Positions 30,983 through 39,303 are shown, counted from the stretch's first letter. The stretch is DNA of 56,137 nt from Candidatus Caldipriscus sp. (GCA_049414445.1 JBMSAP010000091.1:1-56137); one strand, 5' to 3'. Notes: generated from the sequence alone by a model not told the origin. A program made the numbers and translations.

Positions 30983-31809
30983 AGAGGGCTTTAGCGGTAT
31001 TAACAGCATTTTTGGCATGTAGGGATTTAGAATTTAAAAACGAGGTAAAGCCCCTTTACATAAGCGCCCTGCTTGTTGTTGGTGATACCGTGCAGTACAT
31101 TTTCGTGGATAGACCCAGGAAACCCGAAGAGCCTAGAGGGAAAGGGTTTAACGACGCGTACGTTGAGGTTTCGGATGGGGAAAGCACCTGGGTCTTTATG
31201 CCCGAGCTAACCGTGATAAATATCATCGGTGAATTCACACGAGAGAGAGGTAAGGATACGATTTGGCTATATAAGGCGAAGTTCTCGCCGAAACCCCTGA
31301 AACTTTACAAGCTAAAAGTTATAAGGGGTAAGGATACGGTTTTAGGTCAAACCCTAACACCCGACACCTTTTCCTTTATTCTACTCAAAATAAACCCAGA
31401 CAGTACCTTTTCCTTCATCAACGACACCGTAAATTTGCCTCAAGATTCTTCTGTCTTAGCGGTATGGAAGAAGGTTAGGGGGGGATACTTTTACTTCTGC
31501 TTCGTTTATAACCACGATAAGAGGGATAGCCTTCTCGATTACGATCCAAACAGGTACCTATTTGTCCCTGTTTTTGACAGCGCATTAGTGGGGGGAATAG
31601 GGGATAGTTTGAGGGCTTTTCTACCCTTCTACTACTATAGGGACCCTACCTTTTCTTGGGGAAGCGGGAATTACGCGGTGAAAATATGGGCTTTGAGTTA
31701 CGACAGGTTCAGGTGGGGGCTTTACGGTGAGGGTAATTTGGAGAAGGCAGAGGGGTTCTTCGGAGCCGTATCGCAAAGTGTAAGGGTTTTTCCTGTGAAG
31801 TTCAGATGA
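30979..31809 (+). CDS. Lipoprotein, DUF4249-like
   Basis: MKRALAVLTAFLAC lipobox; C-terminal GNL...GFFGA. Confidence 0.65.
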   Translation: MKRALAVLTAFLACRDLEFKNEVKPLYISALLVVGDTVQYIFVDRPRKPEEPRGKGFNDAYVEVSDGESTWVFMPELTVINIIGEFTRERGKDTIWLYKAKFSPKPLKLYKLKVIRGKDTVLGQTLTPDTFSFILLKINPDSTFSFINDTVNLPQDSSVLAVWKKVRGGYFYFCFVYNHDKRDSLLDYDPNRYLFVPVFDSALVGGIGDSLRAFLPFYYYRDPTFSWGSGNYAVKIWALSYDRFRWGLYGEGNLEKAEGFFGAVSQSVRVFPVKFR

Positions 31810-32789
31810 TAAACAACATTAAGGGTTTTGTTGAGCAGTTGAATTACGACGCGGAGGTTTTTGGGAATAGTTTTGAATATTCGGGTAAGAGGATTTTCAT
31901 ATCCGGGATGGGGGGATCTGGGGCTGTGGCGGACCTCCTTTCGGATTGGCTTGATGGGGAGATTATACCGGTAAAGGGTTATAACCTGCCGGCCTTTGCG
32001 GAAAATGGGGATCTCGGGATATTCGTATCTTATTCGGGAAATACTGAGGAGACTTTGTCGGTTTTGGATAAGGCTCTAAGGAGGGGGTTAAAATGTATTT
32101 GTATCTCATCGGGAGGAGCGCTTGAGGAGATAGCAAGGGATAGGGGCTTATTGTTCTTGAAGGTTCCAAGTGGATTTCAACCCAGGGAAGCTTACGGGTT
32201 TTTAATATCGGCGGTTGTTAAGGCTCTAAAGATCGTAGGTTATCTAAGCGAAGATGCTCAAAGGGAGTATTCATCGGCGGTTGGGAAACTATCCAACTAC
32301 CTTCCCGAGCTTTCCTCCGAGGATTCCAAAACATACGAGGTCGCGGGAAAGCTTTACAGGAGGATCCCATTAATTTATTCGCAGTTTTATTCCGTTGCGG
32401 TAAGGTGGAAGAACCAAATAAACGAGAATGCCAAGAACTTCGCGCATATTTCAATATTTCCTGAGCATAACCATAACGAGATAGAAGGGTTTGAATTCCC
32501 GGATTTCCTTAAGGATAAGGCTTGGATAATCTTCCTCAGGACGGACTTTGACCATGGTAGGGTAAAGCTTAGGATGGAGGTGGTGAAGGAGATATTGAGG
32601 GAGGAGGTGGTGGGGATCTCGGAGGTATGGGCTAAGGGTGAAAGTAAGCTGGAGCAGATACTGTACCTAATATGGTTCGGGGACTTTGTGAGTTATTGGC
32701 TTGCCTTGATGAATTCCACCGACCCTTACAGGATAGACAGGATAAATTCATTAAAGGAACGCCTTAAAATACACACTTCGGGCGGTTAG
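31806..32789 (+). CDS. Bifunctional phosphoglucose/phosphomannose isomerase (PGI/PMI, SIS family)
   Basis: GMGGSG, SYSGNTEET, SSGG.L, QPR, RWKNQINENAK, PEHNHNEIEG, GDFVS..LA. Confidence 0.93.
   Translation: MINNIKGFVEQLNYDAEVFGNSFEYSGKRIFISGMGGSGAVADLLSDWLDGEIIPVKGYNLPAFAENGDLGIFVSYSGNTEETLSVLDKALRRGLKCICISSGGALEEIARDRGLLFLKVPSGFQPREAYGFLISAVVKALKIVGYLSEDAQREYSSAVGKLSNYLPELSSEDSKTYEVAGKLYRRIPLIYSQFYSVAVRWKNQINENAKNFAHISIFPEHNHNEIEGFEFPDFLKDKAWIIFLRTDFDHGRVKLRMEVVKEILREEVVGISEVWAKGESKLEQILYLIWFGDFVSYWLALMNSTDPYRIDRINSLKERLKIHTSGG
32765..32770 (+). promoter_or_regulatory. -10 box for tRNA-Val, inside the PGI/PMI 3' end
   Basis: CCT-TAAAAT, 9 nt before tRNA position 1. Confidence 0.6.
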
Positions 32790-32852
32790 CTCAGCGGTGA
32801 GAGCACCGGTCTTACAAACCGGGGGTCGGGGGTTCGAATCCTCCACCGCCCA
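32780..32852 (+). tRNA. tRNA-Val(TAC), CCA not encoded
   Basis: Acceptor GGGCGGT/ACCGCCC, D-arm GCTC/GAGC, anticodon arm CCGGT-CTTACAA-ACCGG, GGTTCGAATCC; discriminator A 32852 followed by CTT. Confidence 0.96.
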
Positions 32853-32853
32853 C

Positions 32854-33123
32854 TTGAAGCTTGAGGTTGATAAAAAAGCGCTGGAATTTATAAGGGAGAA
32901 AGGGGGGAGGGTTTGGATAAAAACCGCCTGCGTTTCAAGTTGCTGTGGGATAGAGGGGTTTGAACCTCAATTTTCCTTTAAGGAAGAGGTGGGAGAATAC
33001 GAAGAGTTTGAGGTTGATGGGGTGAAAATTTATATCCATATGGGAGCTTTAAGGTTCAGGAAGCTTGCAATTTTGCTTCAGAAGGTTTTAGGATATAAGA
33101 GCTTAATTGGGTACTTCGCTTAA
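32854..33123 (+). CDS. Small HesB/IscA-like or CC-motif family protein
   Basis: From TTG 32854: MKLEVDKKALEFIREKGG..CVSSCCG..P....EEFEVDGVKIYI; the 5' part of track ORF 32797 lies inside the tRNA. Confidence 0.7.
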   Translation: MKLEVDKKALEFIREKGGRVWIKTACVSSCCGIEGFEPQFSFKEEVGEYEEFEVDGVKIYIHMGALRFRKLAILLQKVLGYKSLIGYFA

Positions 33124-34302
33124 CCTCTTTGATATCACCCCCACGCACACCATCAAAACTGCTATGTGGATGTAGTATATTAGGGAGGATGTGGTAAAGG
33201 ATAGTATAAGAAGGGATACGAAAAGTAGTAGGGTGAAGAAGGCGAAGTCGTATTTCATCAAGACCCCCCTAATTACGATGTAAAAAGAGTATGAGAGCAT
33301 AAGGGTATAAACGCCAAAACCGAATAACCCCATCTTCCAAAGGACGTTTATAAAGGAGTTATCAACGAAGAATAGGGTGCTTCCCTCTATCCACCTCGTT
33401 AAGATATCCATCTCCGCCCTACCGAAGGCTGGGCTTAATGAGAACCTGTTAAGGGCTAAGGAGAAATCGTAAGCCCTTATTTGGGCGGAAGGGTCGGTAA
33501 GGGTTTCATGGGGGAAAAGTAAGGTTGAAAACCTTGAGAAAACGTACAGCAAAAATGCCTTTCCGAACATAATATAACCGAAGGAGAGGCCCAAAATTAT
33601 GGTGATGGTGAAGGAGATGAGAATAACGGAGGACTGTTTTAAAATACTTTCCCCCTTGTACCACCTATAGAAAACGAGGAGAAGGAGTATAGCAAAAACC
33701 ACTATATAATTTGTCCTATTCCCACCCAAAATAATCACCGCCACGGATAAGAGAATGGATATGAGATAAAGGAGCCTTTTATAAAGTTTCCTCTCGTCGG
33801 ATATAAGGTATAGGGAGATCCCCAAGATAGTTGGGGTAAAGAAGGCGTTCCTGTATCCAAAGCGGAAAGTTGGATTGTACTCCTTAAACATATCAACAAG
33901 GACCTCCGAGAATATGAAGAATACCGAAAAAACGAATAGAGGTGGGATCCATCTTGACAGGACTTTAAAGTTCGCAAATAGCCCCAAAAAGTAAGCCAAA
34001 TAAAAGTATGGGATAAGCATGTGCTCGTTTCCAAAAATTTTCCTGCCAAAAGCTAGAGCCGAAATTAGGGAAAACGTGTGGGTTAAGGCGAAGGCGATTA
34101 TGAGATTACTTAATATGGGATCCGCTTTTGGGAATTTTGAGTAAGCAAGGTTTAACGCGATCCCCAAAAATGTTAAAAGGAGCATAAAGTAAACTACAAG
34201 AACCGCCCTATAACCGAAGGCTTCGGATGGATGTGGGTTTATAATCCCCAAAAATAGAACGGTTAAAGGTATTAAGTTTTCAACTCGTCGTAAGTCCCCC
34301 AT
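33103..34302 (-). CDS. O-antigen ligase/polymerase-like membrane protein
   Basis: Many TMs; GGNRT, S..IR, VDNSF...LWKMG..G. Confidence 0.7.
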   Translation of the reverse strand: MGDLRRVENLIPLTVLFLGIINPHPSEAFGYRAVLVVYFMLLLTFLGIALNLAYSKFPKADPILSNLIIAFALTHTFSLISALAFGRKIFGNEHMLIPYFYLAYFLGLFANFKVLSRWIPPLFVFSVFFIFSEVLVDMFKEYNPTFRFGYRNAFFTPTILGISLYLISDERKLYKRLLYLISILLSVAVIILGGNRTNYIVVFAILLLLVFYRWYKGESILKQSSVILISFTITIILGLSFGYIMFGKAFLLYVFSRFSTLLFPHETLTDPSAQIRAYDFSLALNRFSLSPAFGRAEMDILTRWIEGSTLFFVDNSFINVLWKMGLFGFGVYTLMLSYSFYIVIRGVLMKYDFAFFTLLLFVSLLILSFTTSSLIYYIHIAVLMVCVGVISKRLSEVPN

Positions 34303-35852
34303 ACCTCCCTAAGGGTGTCAGAGATCTCACCGAGGGTTGCCCCCTCCTTTGCGCACTCAAATATATAAGGCATAAGATTTTCCGATCCCTTCGCCTTTTC
34401 CTTTAGTGTCCTTAGCGCCTCCAAAAATCCCTTACCCCTCCTGTTCTTATATTCCCTAACCCTCCTCTTCTGCTCCTCCTGTACCTCCTCCGACAAACTG
34501 AAGAGATCAATTTTTTGCGGTTCCTCGGAAGTTCTGAAAATGTTCACCCCCACTATTAACCTCTCCCCCCTCTCCACCTCGGTTTGGTACCTGTAAGCGC
34601 TCTCTTCTATCTCCCTTTGGAAGTACCCCATTTTCACCGCCTCAACCGCCCCTCCCATAGCCTCTATTTTTTCCAGATACTCCCAAACCCTCTCCTCTAT
34701 TTCCCTAGTAAGACTCTCAACAAAATATGAACCCGCAAGGGGATCGACGGTATCCGGAATATCGGTCTCGTAAGCGATTATCTGCTGTGTCCTTAGGGCC
34801 ACTAAAACTGAAGTTTCGGTGGGCAAGGATAGAGCCTCGTCGTAAGAGTTGGTGTGAAGGGATTGACAGCCACCCAATATCGCCGCGATCGCCTCTATGG
34901 TTGTTCTTATTATGTTATTTAAGGGTTCCTGGGCGGTTAGCGAAGAACCCGCGGTCTGGACATGGTACCTTAATATCATACTCCTGGGGTTTTTCGCCTT
35001 AAAGCGATCCTTTATTATCCTGTACCATATTCTCCTTGCTGCCCTGAACTTGGCTATTTCCTCAAAGAAGTTTATTTGCGCGTTGAAAAAGAAGGAAAGG
35101 CGGGGGGCAAACTCGTCTATATCTATTCCCCTTTTAAGAACCTCCTCCACGTACGCTATCGCATCCGCGAACGTGAAGGCGAGCTCCTGAACGGAATTCG
35201 CCCCAGCCTCCCTATAGTGATAACCCGATATGGATATTGGGTTCCATTTCGGCATATACTTTGCCGTGAATTCTATAAGGTCCCCCACAAGGCGCATTGA
35301 TGGTTCCACGGGGTATATGTAATTTCCCCTCGCCGCGAACTCCTTAAGTATATCGTTCTGAACGGTCCCCGATAGCTTCTCCCTCCTTGAACCCTTCCCT
35401 TCCGCAACGATGGTGTAAAATGCCAAGATAATACCCGCCGTTGCGTTTATGGTCATGGAAGTTGATACCGCTTCCTGATCTATACCCTCAAAGACCTGCG
35501 CCATATCCTCCAAGGTGGAAATAGAGACCCCCGTCCTTCCAACCTCCCCCTCCGCCATGGGGTGATCCGCATCGTAGCCGAGCTGGGTGGGTAGGTCAAA
35601 CGCCAAGGATAGTCCGGTCTGTCCCTGTGAAAGGAGGTACTTGAATCTCTCGTTTGTTTGCTTGGCGGTCCCATATCCCGCGTACTGCCTCATTGTCCAT
35701 AGCCTTCCCCTGTACATATTTGGATATATACCCCTGGTGAACGGTGGATTTCCGGGAAGACCCAGATCCCTTTCCGGATCAAGATCCTTAAGGTCTTCTT
35801 GGGTATAAACTTCCTTTATGGGAAGGCCGAAGGTGGTTTCAAACTTTTTCAT
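34272..35852 (-). CDS. Methylmalonyl-CoA mutase catalytic (large) subunit without B12-binding domain
   Basis: PG.PPFTRG.YP.MY..R.WTMRQYAG, GLS.AFDLPTQ.GYD, GTVQNDILKEF..RG, ISISGYH.REAG, QSLHTNSYDEAL; Tyr and Arg at the usual methylmalonyl-CoA specificity positions. Confidence 0.93.
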   Translation of the reverse strand: MKKFETTFGLPIKEVYTQEDLKDLDPERDLGLPGNPPFTRGIYPNMYRGRLWTMRQYAGYGTAKQTNERFKYLLSQGQTGLSLAFDLPTQLGYDADHPMAEGEVGRTGVSISTLEDMAQVFEGIDQEAVSTSMTINATAGIILAFYTIVAEGKGSRREKLSGTVQNDILKEFAARGNYIYPVEPSMRLVGDLIEFTAKYMPKWNPISISGYHYREAGANSVQELAFTFADAIAYVEEVLKRGIDIDEFAPRLSFFFNAQINFFEEIAKFRAARRIWYRIIKDRFKAKNPRSMILRYHVQTAGSSLTAQEPLNNIIRTTIEAIAAILGGCQSLHTNSYDEALSLPTETSVLVALRTQQIIAYETDIPDTVDPLAGSYFVESLTREIEERVWEYLEKIEAMGGAVEAVKMGYFQREIEESAYRYQTEVERGERLIVGVNIFRTSEEPQKIDLFSLSEEVQEEQKRRVREYKNRRGKGFLEALRTLKEKAKGSENLMPYIFECAKEGATLGEISDTLREVWGTYDELKT

Positions 35853-36793
35853 AGGAAGAGCTGGCTAACGGAACCACCCCTGTGGATCCTCCTAATTGCC
35901 TCCGCGAGAAATTGGGATATATCAAGGACCACGAACTTTGAGGGTAGATCATAGCGTTGGCTTATGGTATTGGTTACCACCACCCTTTCCGCAGGGCATT
36001 TTTCAAGTTTTTCTATGGCGTTCCCAGAAAATAGCCCATGGGTAGCCATAATTATTATCCTTTTTGCCCCTTCCTCCTTTAGTGCGTAAGCGGCGTTTGA
36101 TATGGTCGTCGCGGTATCTATTATATCGTCTATGAGGAGGACGTTTTTACCCTTGACATCCCCTATTACCCTTACAACCTCAGCAACGTTGGGTTTAGGT
36201 CTCCTCTTGTCTATTAATGCTATGGGCAAATTCCAAAGTTTCTCCGCTGTAGTCCTCGCCCTCTTTATTCCCCCCACATCCGGCGATACTATGATCCACT
36301 CATCCGGATTTAAACCCATGGGGAACTCGGAAAGTAAGTATTTTTTGAAAATTGGTGTTGCATAAAGGTTATCAACCGGAATATCAAAGAAACCCTGTAT
36401 CTGGTCTGCATGAAGATCAACGGTTAGGACCCTATCAAAGCCCGCGCTCTCAATCAACTTGGCTATAAGCTTTGCGGATATTGGGACCCTCGGCTTATCC
36501 TTCCTGTCCTGACGGGCATAACCGAAATACGGTATAACAGCGGTAATCCTTGCGGCGGACGCCCTCTTGGCAGCATCACCGAGGAGTAAAAGCTCCAAGA
36601 TGTTCTCCGCAGGCGGATTTGTGGATTGAACTATGAATACATCATCCCCCCTAACGCTCTCATCTATCTGAACAAAGAGCTCTCCATCAGAGAATCTAAT
36701 AACCGAATGTTTGGTTATCTCTATCCCAAGTTCTTCACAAATTCCAGCCATTAAATCCTTATTCGAGTTTCCACCCAAAACCTTTATCTCCAA
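35849..36793 (-). CDS. prs: Ribose-phosphate pyrophosphokinase
   Basis: FSDGE, ESVRG.DVF, PYFGYARQDRK, DLHA.QIQGFF, VSPD.GG..RA, DDIIDTA.T; TTG start. Confidence 0.97.
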   Translation of the reverse strand: MEIKVLGGNSNKDLMAGICEELGIEITKHSVIRFSDGELFVQIDESVRGDDVFIVQSTNPPAENILELLLLGDAAKRASAARITAVIPYFGYARQDRKDKPRVPISAKLIAKLIESAGFDRVLTVDLHADQIQGFFDIPVDNLYATPIFKKYLLSEFPMGLNPDEWIIVSPDVGGIKRARTTAEKLWNLPIALIDKRRPKPNVAEVVRVIGDVKGKNVLLIDDIIDTATTISNAAYALKEEGAKRIIIMATHGLFSGNAIEKLEKCPAERVVVTNTISQRYDLPSKFVVLDISQFLAEAIRRIHRGGSVSQLFL

Positions 36794-36794
36794 A

Positions 36795-36881
36795 CGGAGA
36801 GGGTGGGATTTGAACCCACGAGGGGCTTACGCCCCTACGCGATTTCGAATCGCGCCCCTTCGGCCGCTCGGGCACCTCTCC
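36795..36881 (-). tRNA. tRNA-Ser(CGA), long variable arm, CCA not encoded
   Basis: Reverse complement GGAGAGGTGCCCGAGCGGCCGAAGGGGCGCGATTCGAAATCGCGTAGGGGCGTAAGCCCCTCGTGGGTTCAAATCCCACCCTCTCCG; anticodon CGA; discriminator G followed by TTT. Confidence 0.96.
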
Positions 36882-36892
36882 GTAAGGGGAAA

Positions 36893-36898
36893 ATTTTA
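36893..36898 (-). promoter_or_regulatory. -10 box for the tRNA-Ser-prs unit
   Basis: CCT-TAAAAT on minus strand, 11 nt before tRNA position 1. Confidence 0.62.
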
Positions 36899-36906
36899 AG
36901 GTCGGT

Positions 36907-38397
36907 TTAACCGTAAAACCTCTCCACCTTTCCCCTTAGATAATCCAATAAGTATTCCGATTTTATCTCCTCACCCGTCACTTCTTTTATAAGCTCCTTG
37001 GTTTTGTAAAGGGAACCCTTGGAATAGATCTTGTGTTTTAGCCAAAGTATGATGGGTTCAAACTCTCCCCTTTCCACAAGCTCATAAACCGGTAATTCCT
37101 CCTTCATCTTTGCAAAGATCTGGGCGGAGATTATGTTCCCGAGGGTGTACGTTGGGAAATATCCGAAGGAACCCCCATACCAGTGTACATCTTGCAAAAC
37201 ACCCTCGGAGTGGTTCTTGGGATAAAAGCCGAAGAGGTTCTTGAATTTTTCGTTCCAGAGTTCGGGAAGCTCATCCACATCAAATTTCCCGTTTATAACA
37301 TCCATCTCTATCTCAAACCTCAATATTATGTGGAGATTGTATGTAAGTTCGTCCGCCTCTATCCTTATGGTTGAAGGTTTCACCTCGTTTATAGCAAAGA
37401 GGAAACCCTCAAGGTCTATATTCGCGAAGTGTTCAAAGTGCCTTTGGAGATCCGGGTAAAACCTCCTCCAAAACGCCTCGCTCCTTCCTATTATGTTCTC
37501 CCAAAACCTCGATTGGGATTCGTGGACGGATAGGGATACCGCTCTACCCACGGGTTCTCCCCACATATCCTCCGGCAGGTTCATATCGTAAAGTCCATGC
37601 CCCATCTCGTGTAAGGTTCCAAATATGGAGGGAGAAATAAATTCTTCTTCGTACTTCGTGGTTATCCTTACGTCGTTGGGTGTTATGCGGGTCTCAAAGG
37701 GGTGAATCGTCTCATCAAGCCTTCCCCTCCCGAAGTCGTACCCTATACTCCTCAAAAGGTATTTACAAAACTCCGCCTGTTTATCCTTTGGGAAATTTCC
37801 CCTCAAGAGGTCTTCCTTTGAAGCCTTCCCCGAGGAAAGTACCCTATCCAAAAGCTTAAGGGTCTCTTCTTTTAGATGGGAAAAGACCCCCTCAACTTCC
37901 TCGGCCTTAAGATTCGGCTCGTAAGAATCCAAAAGGGCGTTGTACCTTTCCCCTTCGTATCCCAAAGCATCCGCTATTTCCCTCTTTATCTCGACTATCC
38001 TTTTTATGTACGGTTTTATAAGTTCAAAGTCCCCCGTCTCTTTCGCCTCCACCCATACGTTCTCGCTTTCACTTGATACCCTCGCCTCTTCAATCGCGAG
38101 TTCTTTCGGGATCTTCCTCAACCTTTCGTGCGCCCTCTTCCACCAGTAAATGTTCATCCTCTCCCTCAAGCCGAATTCCCCTTTCTCAGCAATTTCAAGC
38201 ATTTCACCGAACTTATCCGATGTTAAAACTTCATACGTGTATTCCCTCAAAACCGCAAATTGCATAGCCCTATATTTCCCCGCATACTTCGGCATATACG
38301 TCCTCTGGTCCCAGCCCAAGAGTGCCCCAAAGGATGAAAATACGGTTAGCCTGCGGGATATGTTTAAAAGTTCGTTATACGCTTCTATCGGTCTCAT
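36907..38397 (-). CDS. Carboxypeptidase Taq (peptidase M32)
   Basis: WDQ.T.MP, HPF, DVRITT, HEMGH, HESQSRFWEN, IR.EADE.TY..H, G.LQDVHW..G..GYFPTY; likely start ATG 38397. Confidence 0.95.
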   Translation of the reverse strand: MRPIEAYNELLNISRRLTVFSSFGALLGWDQRTYMPKYAGKYRAMQFAVLREYTYEVLTSDKFGEMLEIAEKGEFGLRERMNIYWWKRAHERLRKIPKELAIEEARVSSESENVWVEAKETGDFELIKPYIKRIVEIKREIADALGYEGERYNALLDSYEPNLKAEEVEGVFSHLKEETLKLLDRVLSSGKASKEDLLRGNFPKDKQAEFCKYLLRSIGYDFGRGRLDETIHPFETRITPNDVRITTKYEEEFISPSIFGTLHEMGHGLYDMNLPEDMWGEPVGRAVSLSVHESQSRFWENIIGRSEAFWRRFYPDLQRHFEHFANIDLEGFLFAINEVKPSTIRIEADELTYNLHIILRFEIEMDVINGKFDVDELPELWNEKFKNLFGFYPKNHSEGVLQDVHWYGGSFGYFPTYTLGNIISAQIFAKMKEELPVYELVERGEFEPIILWLKHKIYSKGSLYKTKELIKEVTGEEIKSEYLLDYLRGKVERFYG

Positions 38398-38405
38398 AGT
38401 AGGGT

Positions 38406-38458
38406 ATTGTAAGGTGTGATGGGTTTTTGAACGATCGTTCAAGAACCACCCTTAGAAT
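38406..38458. promoter_or_regulatory. Divergent -10 boxes for M32 peptidase (-) and RND adaptor (+)
   Basis: CCT-TACAAT (minus, 38406-38411) and CCT-TAGAAT (38453-38458), each 8 nt before ATG. Confidence 0.68.
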
Positions 38459-38466
38459 ACCCGAGT

Positions 38467-39303
38467 ATGAGGAAAAGCCTGCTTTTGATCCTTATCCTTT
38501 TCTCCTGCTCAAGGGAGAAGGGGGAAAACAAAAAGGTTTTTGAAGAGGTAAAGGCGGTAAATGTTGAGGTTGTTAAACCAAAGAGTATCTCCAAAGAGAT
38601 CACCGTTTCGGGTACCATAAAGGGATACCCCGATGTTTTGGTGTACCCAGACCTTCCGGGAAGGATCTTGAAGATAAACGTTCAGGATGGGCAGTTTGTA
38701 TCCAAGGGGCAGGTTTTGGCGCTTTTGGATAGATCCTCGCCGGGTTTGGAAGTTCGACCTTTAACCGTTGAGGCACCCACGAGCGGTTACGTTCAAGTCC
38801 TAGTTAGGGACGAGGGTTTCCCAGTTTCCCCTCAAACCTCAATATTCAGAATAGTGGGTAGAAGGGAAATTACGGTGCTCTTTGATGTGCCTGAGATCTT
38901 TGCGGGGAACATAAGGAGGGGCACTAGAATATACGTTGAGGGTAAGCGGGGGGAGGTGATAAGGTTTGCTCCGGCATTAGATCCAAGAACGAGGACGTTA
39001 AAGGTTGAGGGGAAGATAGAGGGGGATTTCTTACCTGGGCAATCAGTCCTTGTTGAAGTCGAGGTTCAAAGGGCGGATTCTACGGTGGTTTTACCCGTGA
39101 GCGCCTTTGTTGAGGATACCACCTTTTACGTCTTTGTCCTTAGGGGGGATAGGGTTAAAAGGGTTCCGGTGAGGATAGGGATAAGGACATCGGAGGGTTA
39201 TCAGGTGGTGGAGGGATTGAAATTTGGGGATACCGTGGTGGTCTTCGGCGCGAATACTTTGAAGGATGGGAGCAAAGTTAAGGTGGTGGGGGGTGTGAGA
39301 TGA
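38467..39303 (+). CDS. RND efflux periplasmic adaptor (MFP) lipoprotein
   Basis: LFSC lipobox; GRI..I.V..G..V.KGQ.L, AP.SG, DP.TRT, PG, GL..GD.VV..G. Confidence 0.9.
   Translation: MRKSLLLILILFSCSREKGENKKVFEEVKAVNVEVVKPKSISKEITVSGTIKGYPDVLVYPDLPGRILKINVQDGQFVSKGQVLALLDRSSPGLEVRPLTVEAPTSGYVQVLVRDEGFPVSPQTSIFRIVGRREITVLFDVPEIFAGNIRRGTRIYVEGKRGEVIRFAPALDPRTRTLKVEGKIEGDFLPGQSVLVEVEVQRADSTVVLPVSAFVEDTTFYVFVLRGDRVKRVPVRIGIRTSEGYQVVEGLKFGDTVVVFGANTLKDGSKVKVVGGVR

Follow-up and report, generated by a model that had tools for sequence, protein, structure and literature searches.

Start codons directly behind tRNA genes in a Candidatus Caldipriscus genome and their possible link to tRNA maturation

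In a contig of 56,137 nucleotides (nt) from Candidatus Caldipriscus sp. (GCA_049414445.1, JBMSAP010000091.1:1-56137; this whole stretch is called the window, and positions are counted from its first letter), a tRNA-Val and a tRNA-Ser gene are each followed by a single nucleotide and then by a TTG start codon, which opens the gene of a CC/Se-motif family protein in the first case and prs in the second. A reading made from the sequence alone had proposed that tRNA maturation would release leaderless mRNAs beginning with N-UUG, coupling translation of a core gene to tRNA processing, and had considered that only two cases were available. The latter restriction can be lifted, as 33 of the 45 tRNA genes of the genome holding the window have a start codon at +1 to +12 from the discriminator base. 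This layout characterizes one order-level group and not the class as a whole. We consider it probable that these loci are promoter-tRNA-YUU-ORF units (ORF, open reading frame) whose transcript is cleaved at the discriminator or just beside it, so that the tRNA goes on to CCA addition and the 5'-monophosphate (5'-P) mRNA is translated as leaderless.

Start codons and trailers behind tRNA genes

The genome holding the window (G000; the window is its contig C91) is that of a hot-spring bacterium of the WOR-3/Caldipriscota lineage (Candidatus Caldipriscota = WOR-3) and comprises 1.48 Mb in 115 contigs, with 44.7% G+C and 89% completeness; its Prs is 97% identical to that of a Candidatus Caldipriscus metagenome-assembled genome, the closest named relative. 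tRNA genes were called with ARAGORN (46 calls) and their boundaries were anchored on the T-loop and on acceptor pairing, the ARAGORN coordinates of both window tRNAs carrying one extra base. One call, a 'tRNA-SeC' (G000:C20:6916-7010) with 1/7 acceptor pairs, lying inside a CcmE-like ORF, was dropped, giving n = 45; the CcmE-like ORF with this probable false call itself comes after tRNA-Leu(gag) on C20. A start was counted when ATG, GTG or TTG at +1 to +12 from the discriminator opened an ORF of at least 50 amino acids (aa).

The two junctions of the window are composed as follows.

32762..32770, plus strand: promoter CCTTAAAAT, with its -10 hexamer at 32765-32770, ending 9 nt before tRNA-Val +1
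32780..32852, plus strand: tRNA-Val(tac), 73 nt, discriminator A32852, CCA not encoded
32853..32855, plus strand: Y-T-T trailer CTT, beginning with C32853, its last two bases being the first two of the TTG start
32854..33123, plus strand: gene of the CC/Se-motif family protein, 89 aa, TTG 32854-32856, at +2 from discriminator A32852
36893..36901, minus strand: promoter CCTTAAAAT, with its -10 hexamer at 36898-36893, ending 11 nt before tRNA-Ser +1
36795..36881, minus strand: tRNA-Ser(cga), 87 nt, discriminator G36795, CCA not encoded
36792..36794, minus strand: Y-T-T trailer TTT, beginning with T36794, overlapping the TTG start 36793-36791
35849..36793, minus strand: prs (ribose-phosphate diphosphokinase), 314 aa, TTG 36793, at +2 from discriminator G36795

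Both junctions read as first described (A32852-C-TTG 32854 and G36795-T-TTG 36793), and it is equally correct that both tRNAs lack an encoded CCA, have each their own -10 box (CCTTAAAAT) and offer no Shine-Dalgarno (SD) sequence, neither junction having an SD-like 4-mer or a -10-like TAnnnT at -18 to -4 before the start codon. The N-terminus of Prs does need TTG 36793, as had been claimed. This is the first possible prs start, because an in-frame TAA lies inside tRNA-Ser, and the family profile (NCBIfam NF002320, 430 bits) reaches residue 2, which aligns to position 6 of the 316-position model. The CC/Se-motif protein matches NCBIfam NF041239 (58 bits) with its residues 1-84 against profile positions 1-86; the family member in the window has Cys-Cys, not selenocysteine.

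Tabulated over the whole genome, as the sequence-only reading had suggested, the discriminator-to-start distances are not random. A start codon is found within +12 after 33/45 tRNAs and within +5 after 26/45, as compared with 12% and 5%, respectively, of 20,000 random genome positions, and the adjacency of tRNAs and start codons therefore exceeds the chance level of such positions. CCA is encoded by none of the 45 tRNA genes. The starts are distributed in the following way.

TTG, 22 in total: +1 (3), +2 (12), +3 (5), +6 (1), +7 (1)
ATG, 10 in total: +4 (3), +5 (3), and +6, +8, +9 and +11 (1 each)
GTG, 1 in total: +12 (1)

Among the remaining 12 tRNAs, four precede the next tRNA of a cluster, five are without a nearby ORF or at a contig end, and two precede ORFs with a clear AAGGAGG spacer, namely tuf (at +19) and an ORF on C100 (at +35). 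The tRNA-led units include the housekeeping genes prs, asd, murA, gyrA, nuoA, nuoH, rpmB, rpmG, gatC and ahcY. The last of the 12, tRNA-Tyr(gta) (G000:C6 10917-11000), is followed by a GalE-like epimerase gene with no ATG, GTG or TTG until +88. When residues are numbered from a CTG at +4, its profile aligns from residue 3 onwards, which points to a CTG, or another near-cognate codon, right behind this tRNA as the start.

The start codons were assessed from both sides. Downstream, family matches were obtained for 23 of the 33 tRNA-led ORFs (20 in Pfam above the gathering score and 3 strong ones in NCBIfam), and in 13 tRNA-led genes the first positions of the profile align to residues 1-8 (residue aligned to profile position: Asd 2 to 1, MurA 6 to 1, L28 3 to 1, PdxT 5 to 1, AdoHcyase 3 to 3, Rrf2 5 to 2, patatin 5 to 1, GFO 6 to 1, HMA 7 to 3, QueD 7 to 2, lyase 8 to 7, CC/Se 1 to 1 and Prs 2 to 6). 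Because the profile edges reach these residues, the tRNA-adjacent codon is needed in the 13 genes, for which later start codons are ruled out. Upstream, the C-rich 3' half of the tRNA supplies the bases just before the tRNA-led starts, and no SD-like 4-mer was found at -18 to -4 in any of the 33 genes. A promoter inside the tRNA, which would speak against the sequence-only reading, was looked for as TAnnnT in the same interval and was likewise found in 0/33, so that an SD or an internal promoter in the tRNA 3' half is ruled out. No 16S rRNA gene, from which the anti-SD could be read, was found in this 89% complete assembly.

The bases behind the discriminator are themselves strongly constrained. 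The first is C in 24 and T in 21 of the 45 tRNAs, the second is T in 44/45 and the third is T in 39/45, the rare G's at this third position deriving from TTG starts at +1. The Y-T-T is kept within a five-tRNA cluster, with its 5-7 nt spacers, and where no gene follows; it is thus a signal in its own right, and most simply it would be a 3'-processing signal. The choice of start codon follows the same boundary, since none of the 10 ATG starts comes before +4, and TTG starts sit at +1 to +3 in 20 of 22 cases, where they reuse the T's of the trailer. TTG accounts for 22/33 starts after tRNAs versus 31/246 after promoters (p = 9e-11). If the trailer must stay Y-U-U, starts pressed against the tRNA would have to be UUG, which shares two U's with it, and AUG would never come nearer than +4.

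Promoter-led and tRNA-led genes in the genome and its relatives

A consensus promoter, CYTTAWAAT(A), is found 7-16 nt upstream of tRNA +1 in 41 of the 45 cases, with a mode of 9 nt (20 cases), and the four tRNAs without it are inner members of the cluster. The CYTTAWAAT motif has 840 occurrences in the genome versus 368 expected from base composition, and about 246 ORFs of at least 80 aa have a promoter motif ending 6-10 nt before their first start codon, against a background elsewhere of about 3 ORFs per distance bin. The ORFs per motif-to-start distance are the following.

6 nt: 49
7 nt: 62
8 nt: 87
9 nt: 29
10 nt: 19

Because the motif-to-start distance peaks at 6-10 nt, a large share of the transcription units of this organism starts at the start codon or no more than a couple of bases away from it; the start codon is ATG in 190, TTG in 31 and GTG in 25 of the 246 promoter-led ORFs. 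In a crude gene set of non-shadow ORFs of at least 100 aa (1373 ORFs), TAWAAT was found 5-11 nt before a start candidate in 356/1335 ORFs versus 18 at internal control positions, and SD-like motifs were barely enriched genome-wide (359 versus 240 in the control). Leaderless mRNAs appear from these counts to be a major expression mode in G000, used by at least a quarter of its genes, and internal genes are mostly coupled by overlap. Upstream of many tRNAs the promoter motif stands in divergent pairs, seen as ATTTTAAGG, which drive leaderless genes in opposite directions.

The tRNA-led genes themselves have no -10 element 6-10 nt before their start, as the tRNA intervenes. The -10-to-start spacing of leaderless genes is found in about 246 other ORFs of G000, and it is also found in orthologues of three tRNA-led genes in relatives. 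The relatives comprise further members of its own family (f1, G000-G011), a sister family (f2, G012-G018) and G020 of the same class; two genera, g1 and g2, are told apart. The CC-motif gene is led by tRNA-Val in G000-G003, the junction being identical in G002 and composed of tRNA-Val, T and an in-frame TTG in G001 and G003; in G004 there is no tRNA, and CCTTAAAAT is followed by 8 nt and ATG. Asd is preceded by tRNA-His, CT and TTG in three genomes of genus g1 and, without any tRNA, by TAGAAT, 8 nt and TTG in two genomes of genus g2. AdoHcyase, which comes after the five-tRNA cluster, T and TTG in genus g1, has a -10 hexamer, 7-9 nt and ATG in genus g2 and in family f2. In two of these three orthologue comparisons, ATG is changed to TTG where the tRNA is present. 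As the three orthologues are promoter-led without a tRNA in relatives, the tRNA-led genes belong to the leaderless class, and from these comparisons the tRNA would seem to be a removable leader, set between a leaderless promoter and a start codon.

The combination of tRNA-Ser(cga), TTG at +2 or +3 and prs occurs in 12/12 genomes of family f1, with Prs down to 70% identity. In family f2, prs comes after tRNA-Ala, with TTG at +4 to +11 in 5/7 genomes and a spacer of about 40 nt in 2/7, and more distant families have ordinary spacers before prs, some with an SD. A broader sample was taken with ARAGORN from 30 loci each of the 47, 44 and 46 Rfam tRNA matches of G005, G014 and G020, respectively, counting tRNAs at loci with at least 45 nt upstream and at least 70 nt downstream.

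G005, same family: 29 tRNAs; start within +12 in 11 and within +5 in 9; CCA encoded in 0; Y-T-T kept
G014, same order: 31 tRNAs; start within +12 in 19 and within +5 in 16; CCA encoded in 0; trailer T-rich, with ATG from +2
G020, same class: 35 tRNAs; start within +12 in 4 and within +5 in 0; CCA encoded in 3; trailer not strictly kept

The neighbours of the two junctions in the window are the following.

34272..35852, minus strand: methylmalonyl-CoA mutase N-terminal-domain gene (TIGR00641, 768 bits), whose start overlaps the prs stop by 4 nt
33103..34302, minus strand: multi-pass membrane protein, 399 aa, third ORF of the prs run
31806..32789, plus strand: bifunctional phosphoglucose/phosphomannose isomerase (PGI/PMI) ORF, upstream of tRNA-Val
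36907..38442, minus strand: M32 carboxypeptidase gene, upstream of tRNA-Ser, ending 25 nt before the tRNA

The 4-nt overlap makes the mutase gene the second gene of the tRNA-Ser-led unit. The run behind prs had been read as prs, mutase and ligase; the mutase stands, and the ligase does not, since no Pfam or NCBIfam family was found for the 399-aa membrane protein that is the third ORF. The promoter of tRNA-Ser occupies the gap that separates this tRNA from the M32 carboxypeptidase gene, whose stop is at 36907, and the tRNA-Val promoter sits within the 3' end of the PGI/PMI ORF. The end of this ORF crosses the promoter and enters the tRNA by 10 nt (32780-32789), and its family profile ends at residue 321/327, the conserved part stopping 6 residues before the ORF end.

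Maturation of tRNA and mRNA at the junctions

Under the reading that we favour, each unit would be composed of a consensus promoter, a tRNA or tRNA cluster, Y-U-U and an ORF, with the tRNA as its first element. Transcription would begin from the CYTTAWAAT promoter a few bases ahead of the tRNA, RNase P would trim the short 5' leader, and an endonuclease would cut within the conserved Y-U-U, at the discriminator or immediately beside it. The freed tRNA would be completed by one or both of two CCA-type nucleotidyltransferases, and the freed 5'-P mRNA, with a leader of 0-4 nt (mode 1 nt), would be translated by the leaderless route. With a single gene copy for each tRNA species, efficient cutting of the junction is required. 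The original proposal, in which tRNA maturation yields N-UUG leaderless mRNAs and couples them to tRNA processing, is strengthened by the genome-wide pattern, by the lack of SD and internal promoters, by the leaderless promoters and by the orthologues; its processing and translation steps, namely co-transcription, the site of the cut and the enzyme that makes it, and the cut product as the translated species, we infer from the layout of the genes.

The enzymes that could take part were searched for in G000 and its relatives. For RNase Z (TIGR02651), nothing was found over the cut-off in 21 genomes (G000 and 20 relatives); the best candidate in G000 (19 bits) was rejected, being a 279-aa generic metallo-beta-lactamase-fold protein whose best matches are GloB-like. 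RNase E/G was found in 0/12 genomes searched, RNase J in 0/12 over the cut-off, and RNase Y in 12/12. The sequence-only reading had relied on RNase Z as the cutter, which is not borne out: no rnz passes the cut-off and 24/45 trailers begin with C, a base that, when placed after the discriminator, reportedly inhibits the RNase Z of B. subtilis, as Pellegrini et al. are said to have found in 2003. Candidate nucleases would instead be RNase Y or a short beta-CASP ribonuclease and, as far as our searches show, not RNase Z. CCA addition, for which the search suggested by the earlier reading was made, is possible, as two predicted class-II PolyA_pol/CCA-type nucleotidyltransferase genes were found, one of 379 aa without HD (C3, L112:1447-2586) and one of 462 aa with HD (C39, L113:502-1890); they are reminiscent of the split CC-adding and A-adding enzymes of Aquifex. 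RNase P RNA (RF00010) is present in 12/12 genomes of family f1 and was found in 0/7 of family f2; a HARP-type protein (TIGR03875) is present in 7/7 f2 genomes (6 over the cut-off) and in 0/12 f1 genomes. From this distribution, it looks like RNA-based RNase P was replaced by a protein-only RNase P within one order.

RNA-library contigs were also compared with the window. X2 contigs cover 31006-33124 and 36504-39000 and bridge both junctions, with DNA carry-over possible, which is weakly compatible with co-transcription. The X21 and X22 contigs, of about 96% identity over the carboxypeptidase gene and tRNA-Ser, diverge exactly at discriminator 36795, beyond which their sequence is unrelated and begins with CCA on the tRNA strand; this may have arisen when the assembly joined sequences at a conserved tRNA. 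In the X20 and X22 contigs, adapter sequence is joined at 36871/36872, about 10 nt inside the 5' end of tRNA-Ser, which may reflect reverse-transcriptase stops at a modified base.

Several points weigh against the cleavage of these units. Ten of the 33 ORFs behind tRNAs match no family convincingly, and one of these, the ORF after tRNA-Gly(ccc) on C20, runs off the contig end and may be spurious. The searches for an enzyme of the proposed cut found no RNase Z, RNase E/G or canonical RNase J in G000 (89% complete) or in the relatives, and a beta-CASP/RMMBL gene of G000 (C26:485-1350) is split over three frames (ORFs of 89, 97 and 106 aa). This gene may be a pseudogene with frameshifts, or the assembly may be in error; in G001 and G003, a weak RNase J-type match falls on a 435-aa ORF, a possible intact counterpart. 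The RNA evidence consists of assembled contigs (from four RNA-library runs), which show neither starts, ends, strand nor level. In E. coli, UUG serves poorly as the start codon of leaderless mRNAs, although TTG is here also the start of 31/246 promoter-led ORFs and of the promoter-led Asd in g2. Finally, the spacing from tRNA to ORF is no tighter than that from one coding sequence to the next, as in the crude gene set about 72% of the 873 pairs of same-strand neighbours overlap or lie at most 12 nt apart. Compaction alone explains the adjacency, but not the Y-T-T trailer and the use of TTG.

This last point is the core of the first alternative, in which streamlining has simply removed the spacers and initiation is internal and SD-independent, with no dependence on tRNA excision. 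The genome is indeed compact, about 92% of the assembly lying under ORFs of at least 100 aa and an exact 4-nt overlap being present in 200 same-strand neighbouring ORF pairs, and the weak enrichment of SD-like motifs means that SD-independent initiation must be common. We nevertheless regard compaction as an unlikely full account. It leaves unexplained the near-invariant Y-T-T, kept even where no gene follows, the limit of ATG at +4 as opposed to the trailer-overlapping TTG, and the leaderless, promoter-led orthologues. Moreover, a start 1-2 nt past a G+C-rich acceptor stem of 7 bp should be hard to reach in an uncut transcript, and the single-copy tRNAs require the junction to be cut for tRNA function in any case.

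A second alternative, which seems to us still less probable, dispenses with a specific endonuclease: the fusion would be translated as such, or poorly, exonucleases would trim the mRNA back to the acceptor stem, and tRNA production and mRNA life would be successive stages of one molecule. It would fit the failure to find RNase Z, E/G and J, as well as the presence in G000 of PNPase and two RNB-family exonucleases, which act 3'-to-5' (no separate RNase PH was found in this genome). It needs, however, initiation beside a folded tRNA, gives no role to the conserved Y-U-U and ties tRNA supply to the full decay of multi-kb operons, such as that of prs, the mutase and the membrane protein. RNase Y is available in all 12 genomes searched, and Propionibacterium acnes, which is also without RNase Z, shows endonucleolytic cuts just 3' of tRNAs, according to the accessible part of the report (PMC3848588).

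Mis-called starts, with the real ones downstream behind an SD or with promoters hidden inside the tRNA genes, are hardly credible and largely refuted already: some ORFs do have later in-frame starts (prs +17, Asd +33) and 10 of the 33 are unmatched, but profiles reach residues 1-8 in 13 genes, prs would lose its conserved first strand at +17, 0/33 genes have an upstream SD-like motif or TAnnnT, and the junction TTG is conserved across genera.

Comparison with known systems

The layout combines leaderless promoters, tRNA-mRNA co-transcription and CCA-less tRNAs, each of which is known by itself. A literature search returned no report of such an arrangement, only mitochondrial work and unrelated bacterial papers, and the Pyropristinus and WOR-3 isolate papers make no mention of leaderless mRNAs or promoters, supplements aside in both cases. 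If the cleavage of these units is confirmed, this would be the first bacterial genome-wide case found in which tRNA excision sets mRNA 5' ends and translation starts. Some 30 housekeeping units would be coupled, both stoichiometrically and kinetically, to tRNA maturation, processed (5'-P), UUG-initiated leaderless mRNAs could serve core genes, and a start codon would have been shaped by an RNA-processing signal. It would also point to a new tRNA 3' endonuclease in organisms without detected RNase Z, E/G or J. For gene callers, the rule in such genomes is that the start lies directly after the discriminator and is often TTG.

Leaderless mRNAs are described in mycobacteria (PMC4633059) and in S. 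coelicolor (PMC4681348), as far as the accessible parts of these papers go. On that basis, the leaderless mRNAs of Actinobacteria and Deinococcus-Thermus have a fixed, short -10-to-start distance, no SD and a large share of the genes, and the promoter-led genes of G000 fit this class. The tRNA-led genes differ from it in two respects: the 5' end is there a primary triphosphate (5'-PPP), whereas the 33 genes of G000 would receive a 5'-P by processing, and their start is mostly UUG rather than AUG or GUG.

In the tufB operon of E. coli, tRNAs are followed by tuf in one co-transcript. The tRNA-led units resemble it in placing tRNAs and an ORF in one unit behind a tRNA promoter, but the operon has a classical spacer with its own SD, and the 33 units of G000 have neither. 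The classical layout occurs in G000 with tuf itself, as tRNA-Gln(ctg), an 18-nt spacer with AAGGAGG, and tuf, and otherwise only with the ORF on C100 at +35.

Maturation of CCA-less tRNAs in B. subtilis reportedly depends on RNase Z, in the work attributed to Pellegrini et al. in 2003. The likeness lies in a CCA that is not encoded, in a cut expected after the discriminator, in a U-rich trailer and in the need for a CCA-adding enzyme; in contrast, rnz was not found in G000 and 24/45 of its trailers begin with C. P. acnes is nearer in this respect. In the accessible part of one report, it has no RNase Z homologue, endonucleolytic cuts were mapped just 3' of its tRNAs, including CCA-less ones, it is rich in leaderless mRNAs, and an RNase E homologue is proposed as the tRNA 3' enzyme (PMC3848588). 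It thus resembles G000, where RNase Z was not found either, in having tRNAs without an encoded CCA and an abundance of leaderless mRNAs. It is unlike G000 in that RNase E is proposed there and RNase E/G was not found here, and no abutting ORF starts are mentioned in that part of the report.

The closest parallel remains the mitochondrial one. tRNA punctuation of animal mitochondrial transcripts was reportedly set out by Ojala, Montoya and Attardi in 1981, and the model is cited in PMC10941002, of which a part was accessible. In both systems, a tRNA abuts an ORF at 0 to a few nt, its excision would set the mRNA 5' end, the resulting mRNAs would be without leader or SD, and CCA is added post-transcriptionally. 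In G000, direct adjacency of tRNAs to ORF starts is found, whereas tRNAs set between the genes of one long polycistronic precursor, with mRNAs or rRNAs on either side, are not, and of the mitochondrial pair RNase P and RNase Z only RNase P RNA was found. The idea of tRNAs as punctuation within long polycistrons therefore has to be given up for this genome, where each tRNA is promoter-proximal and first in its unit (41/45 with their own promoter), and where only the tRNA 3' side abuts an ORF start. Further differences are that RNase Z was not found in G000, that a Y-U-U trailer is kept, that UUG is the preferred start, and that this is a free-living bacterium of about 1,400 genes, most of them not linked to tRNAs.

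The broadest form of our proposal, which we hold only tentatively and would slightly sooner doubt than believe, is that in free-living thermophiles of two families of one WOR-3/Caldipriscota order, tRNAs serve as cleavable 5' leaders: an RNase Z-independent endonuclease would read the discriminator and Y-U-U, 5'-P mRNAs would start 0-2 nt before UUG, about 30 housekeeping units would be coupled to tRNA maturation, and punctuation of the mitochondrial style would have been invented independently. These bacteria would then provide a free-living comparator for the mitochondrial punctuation model.

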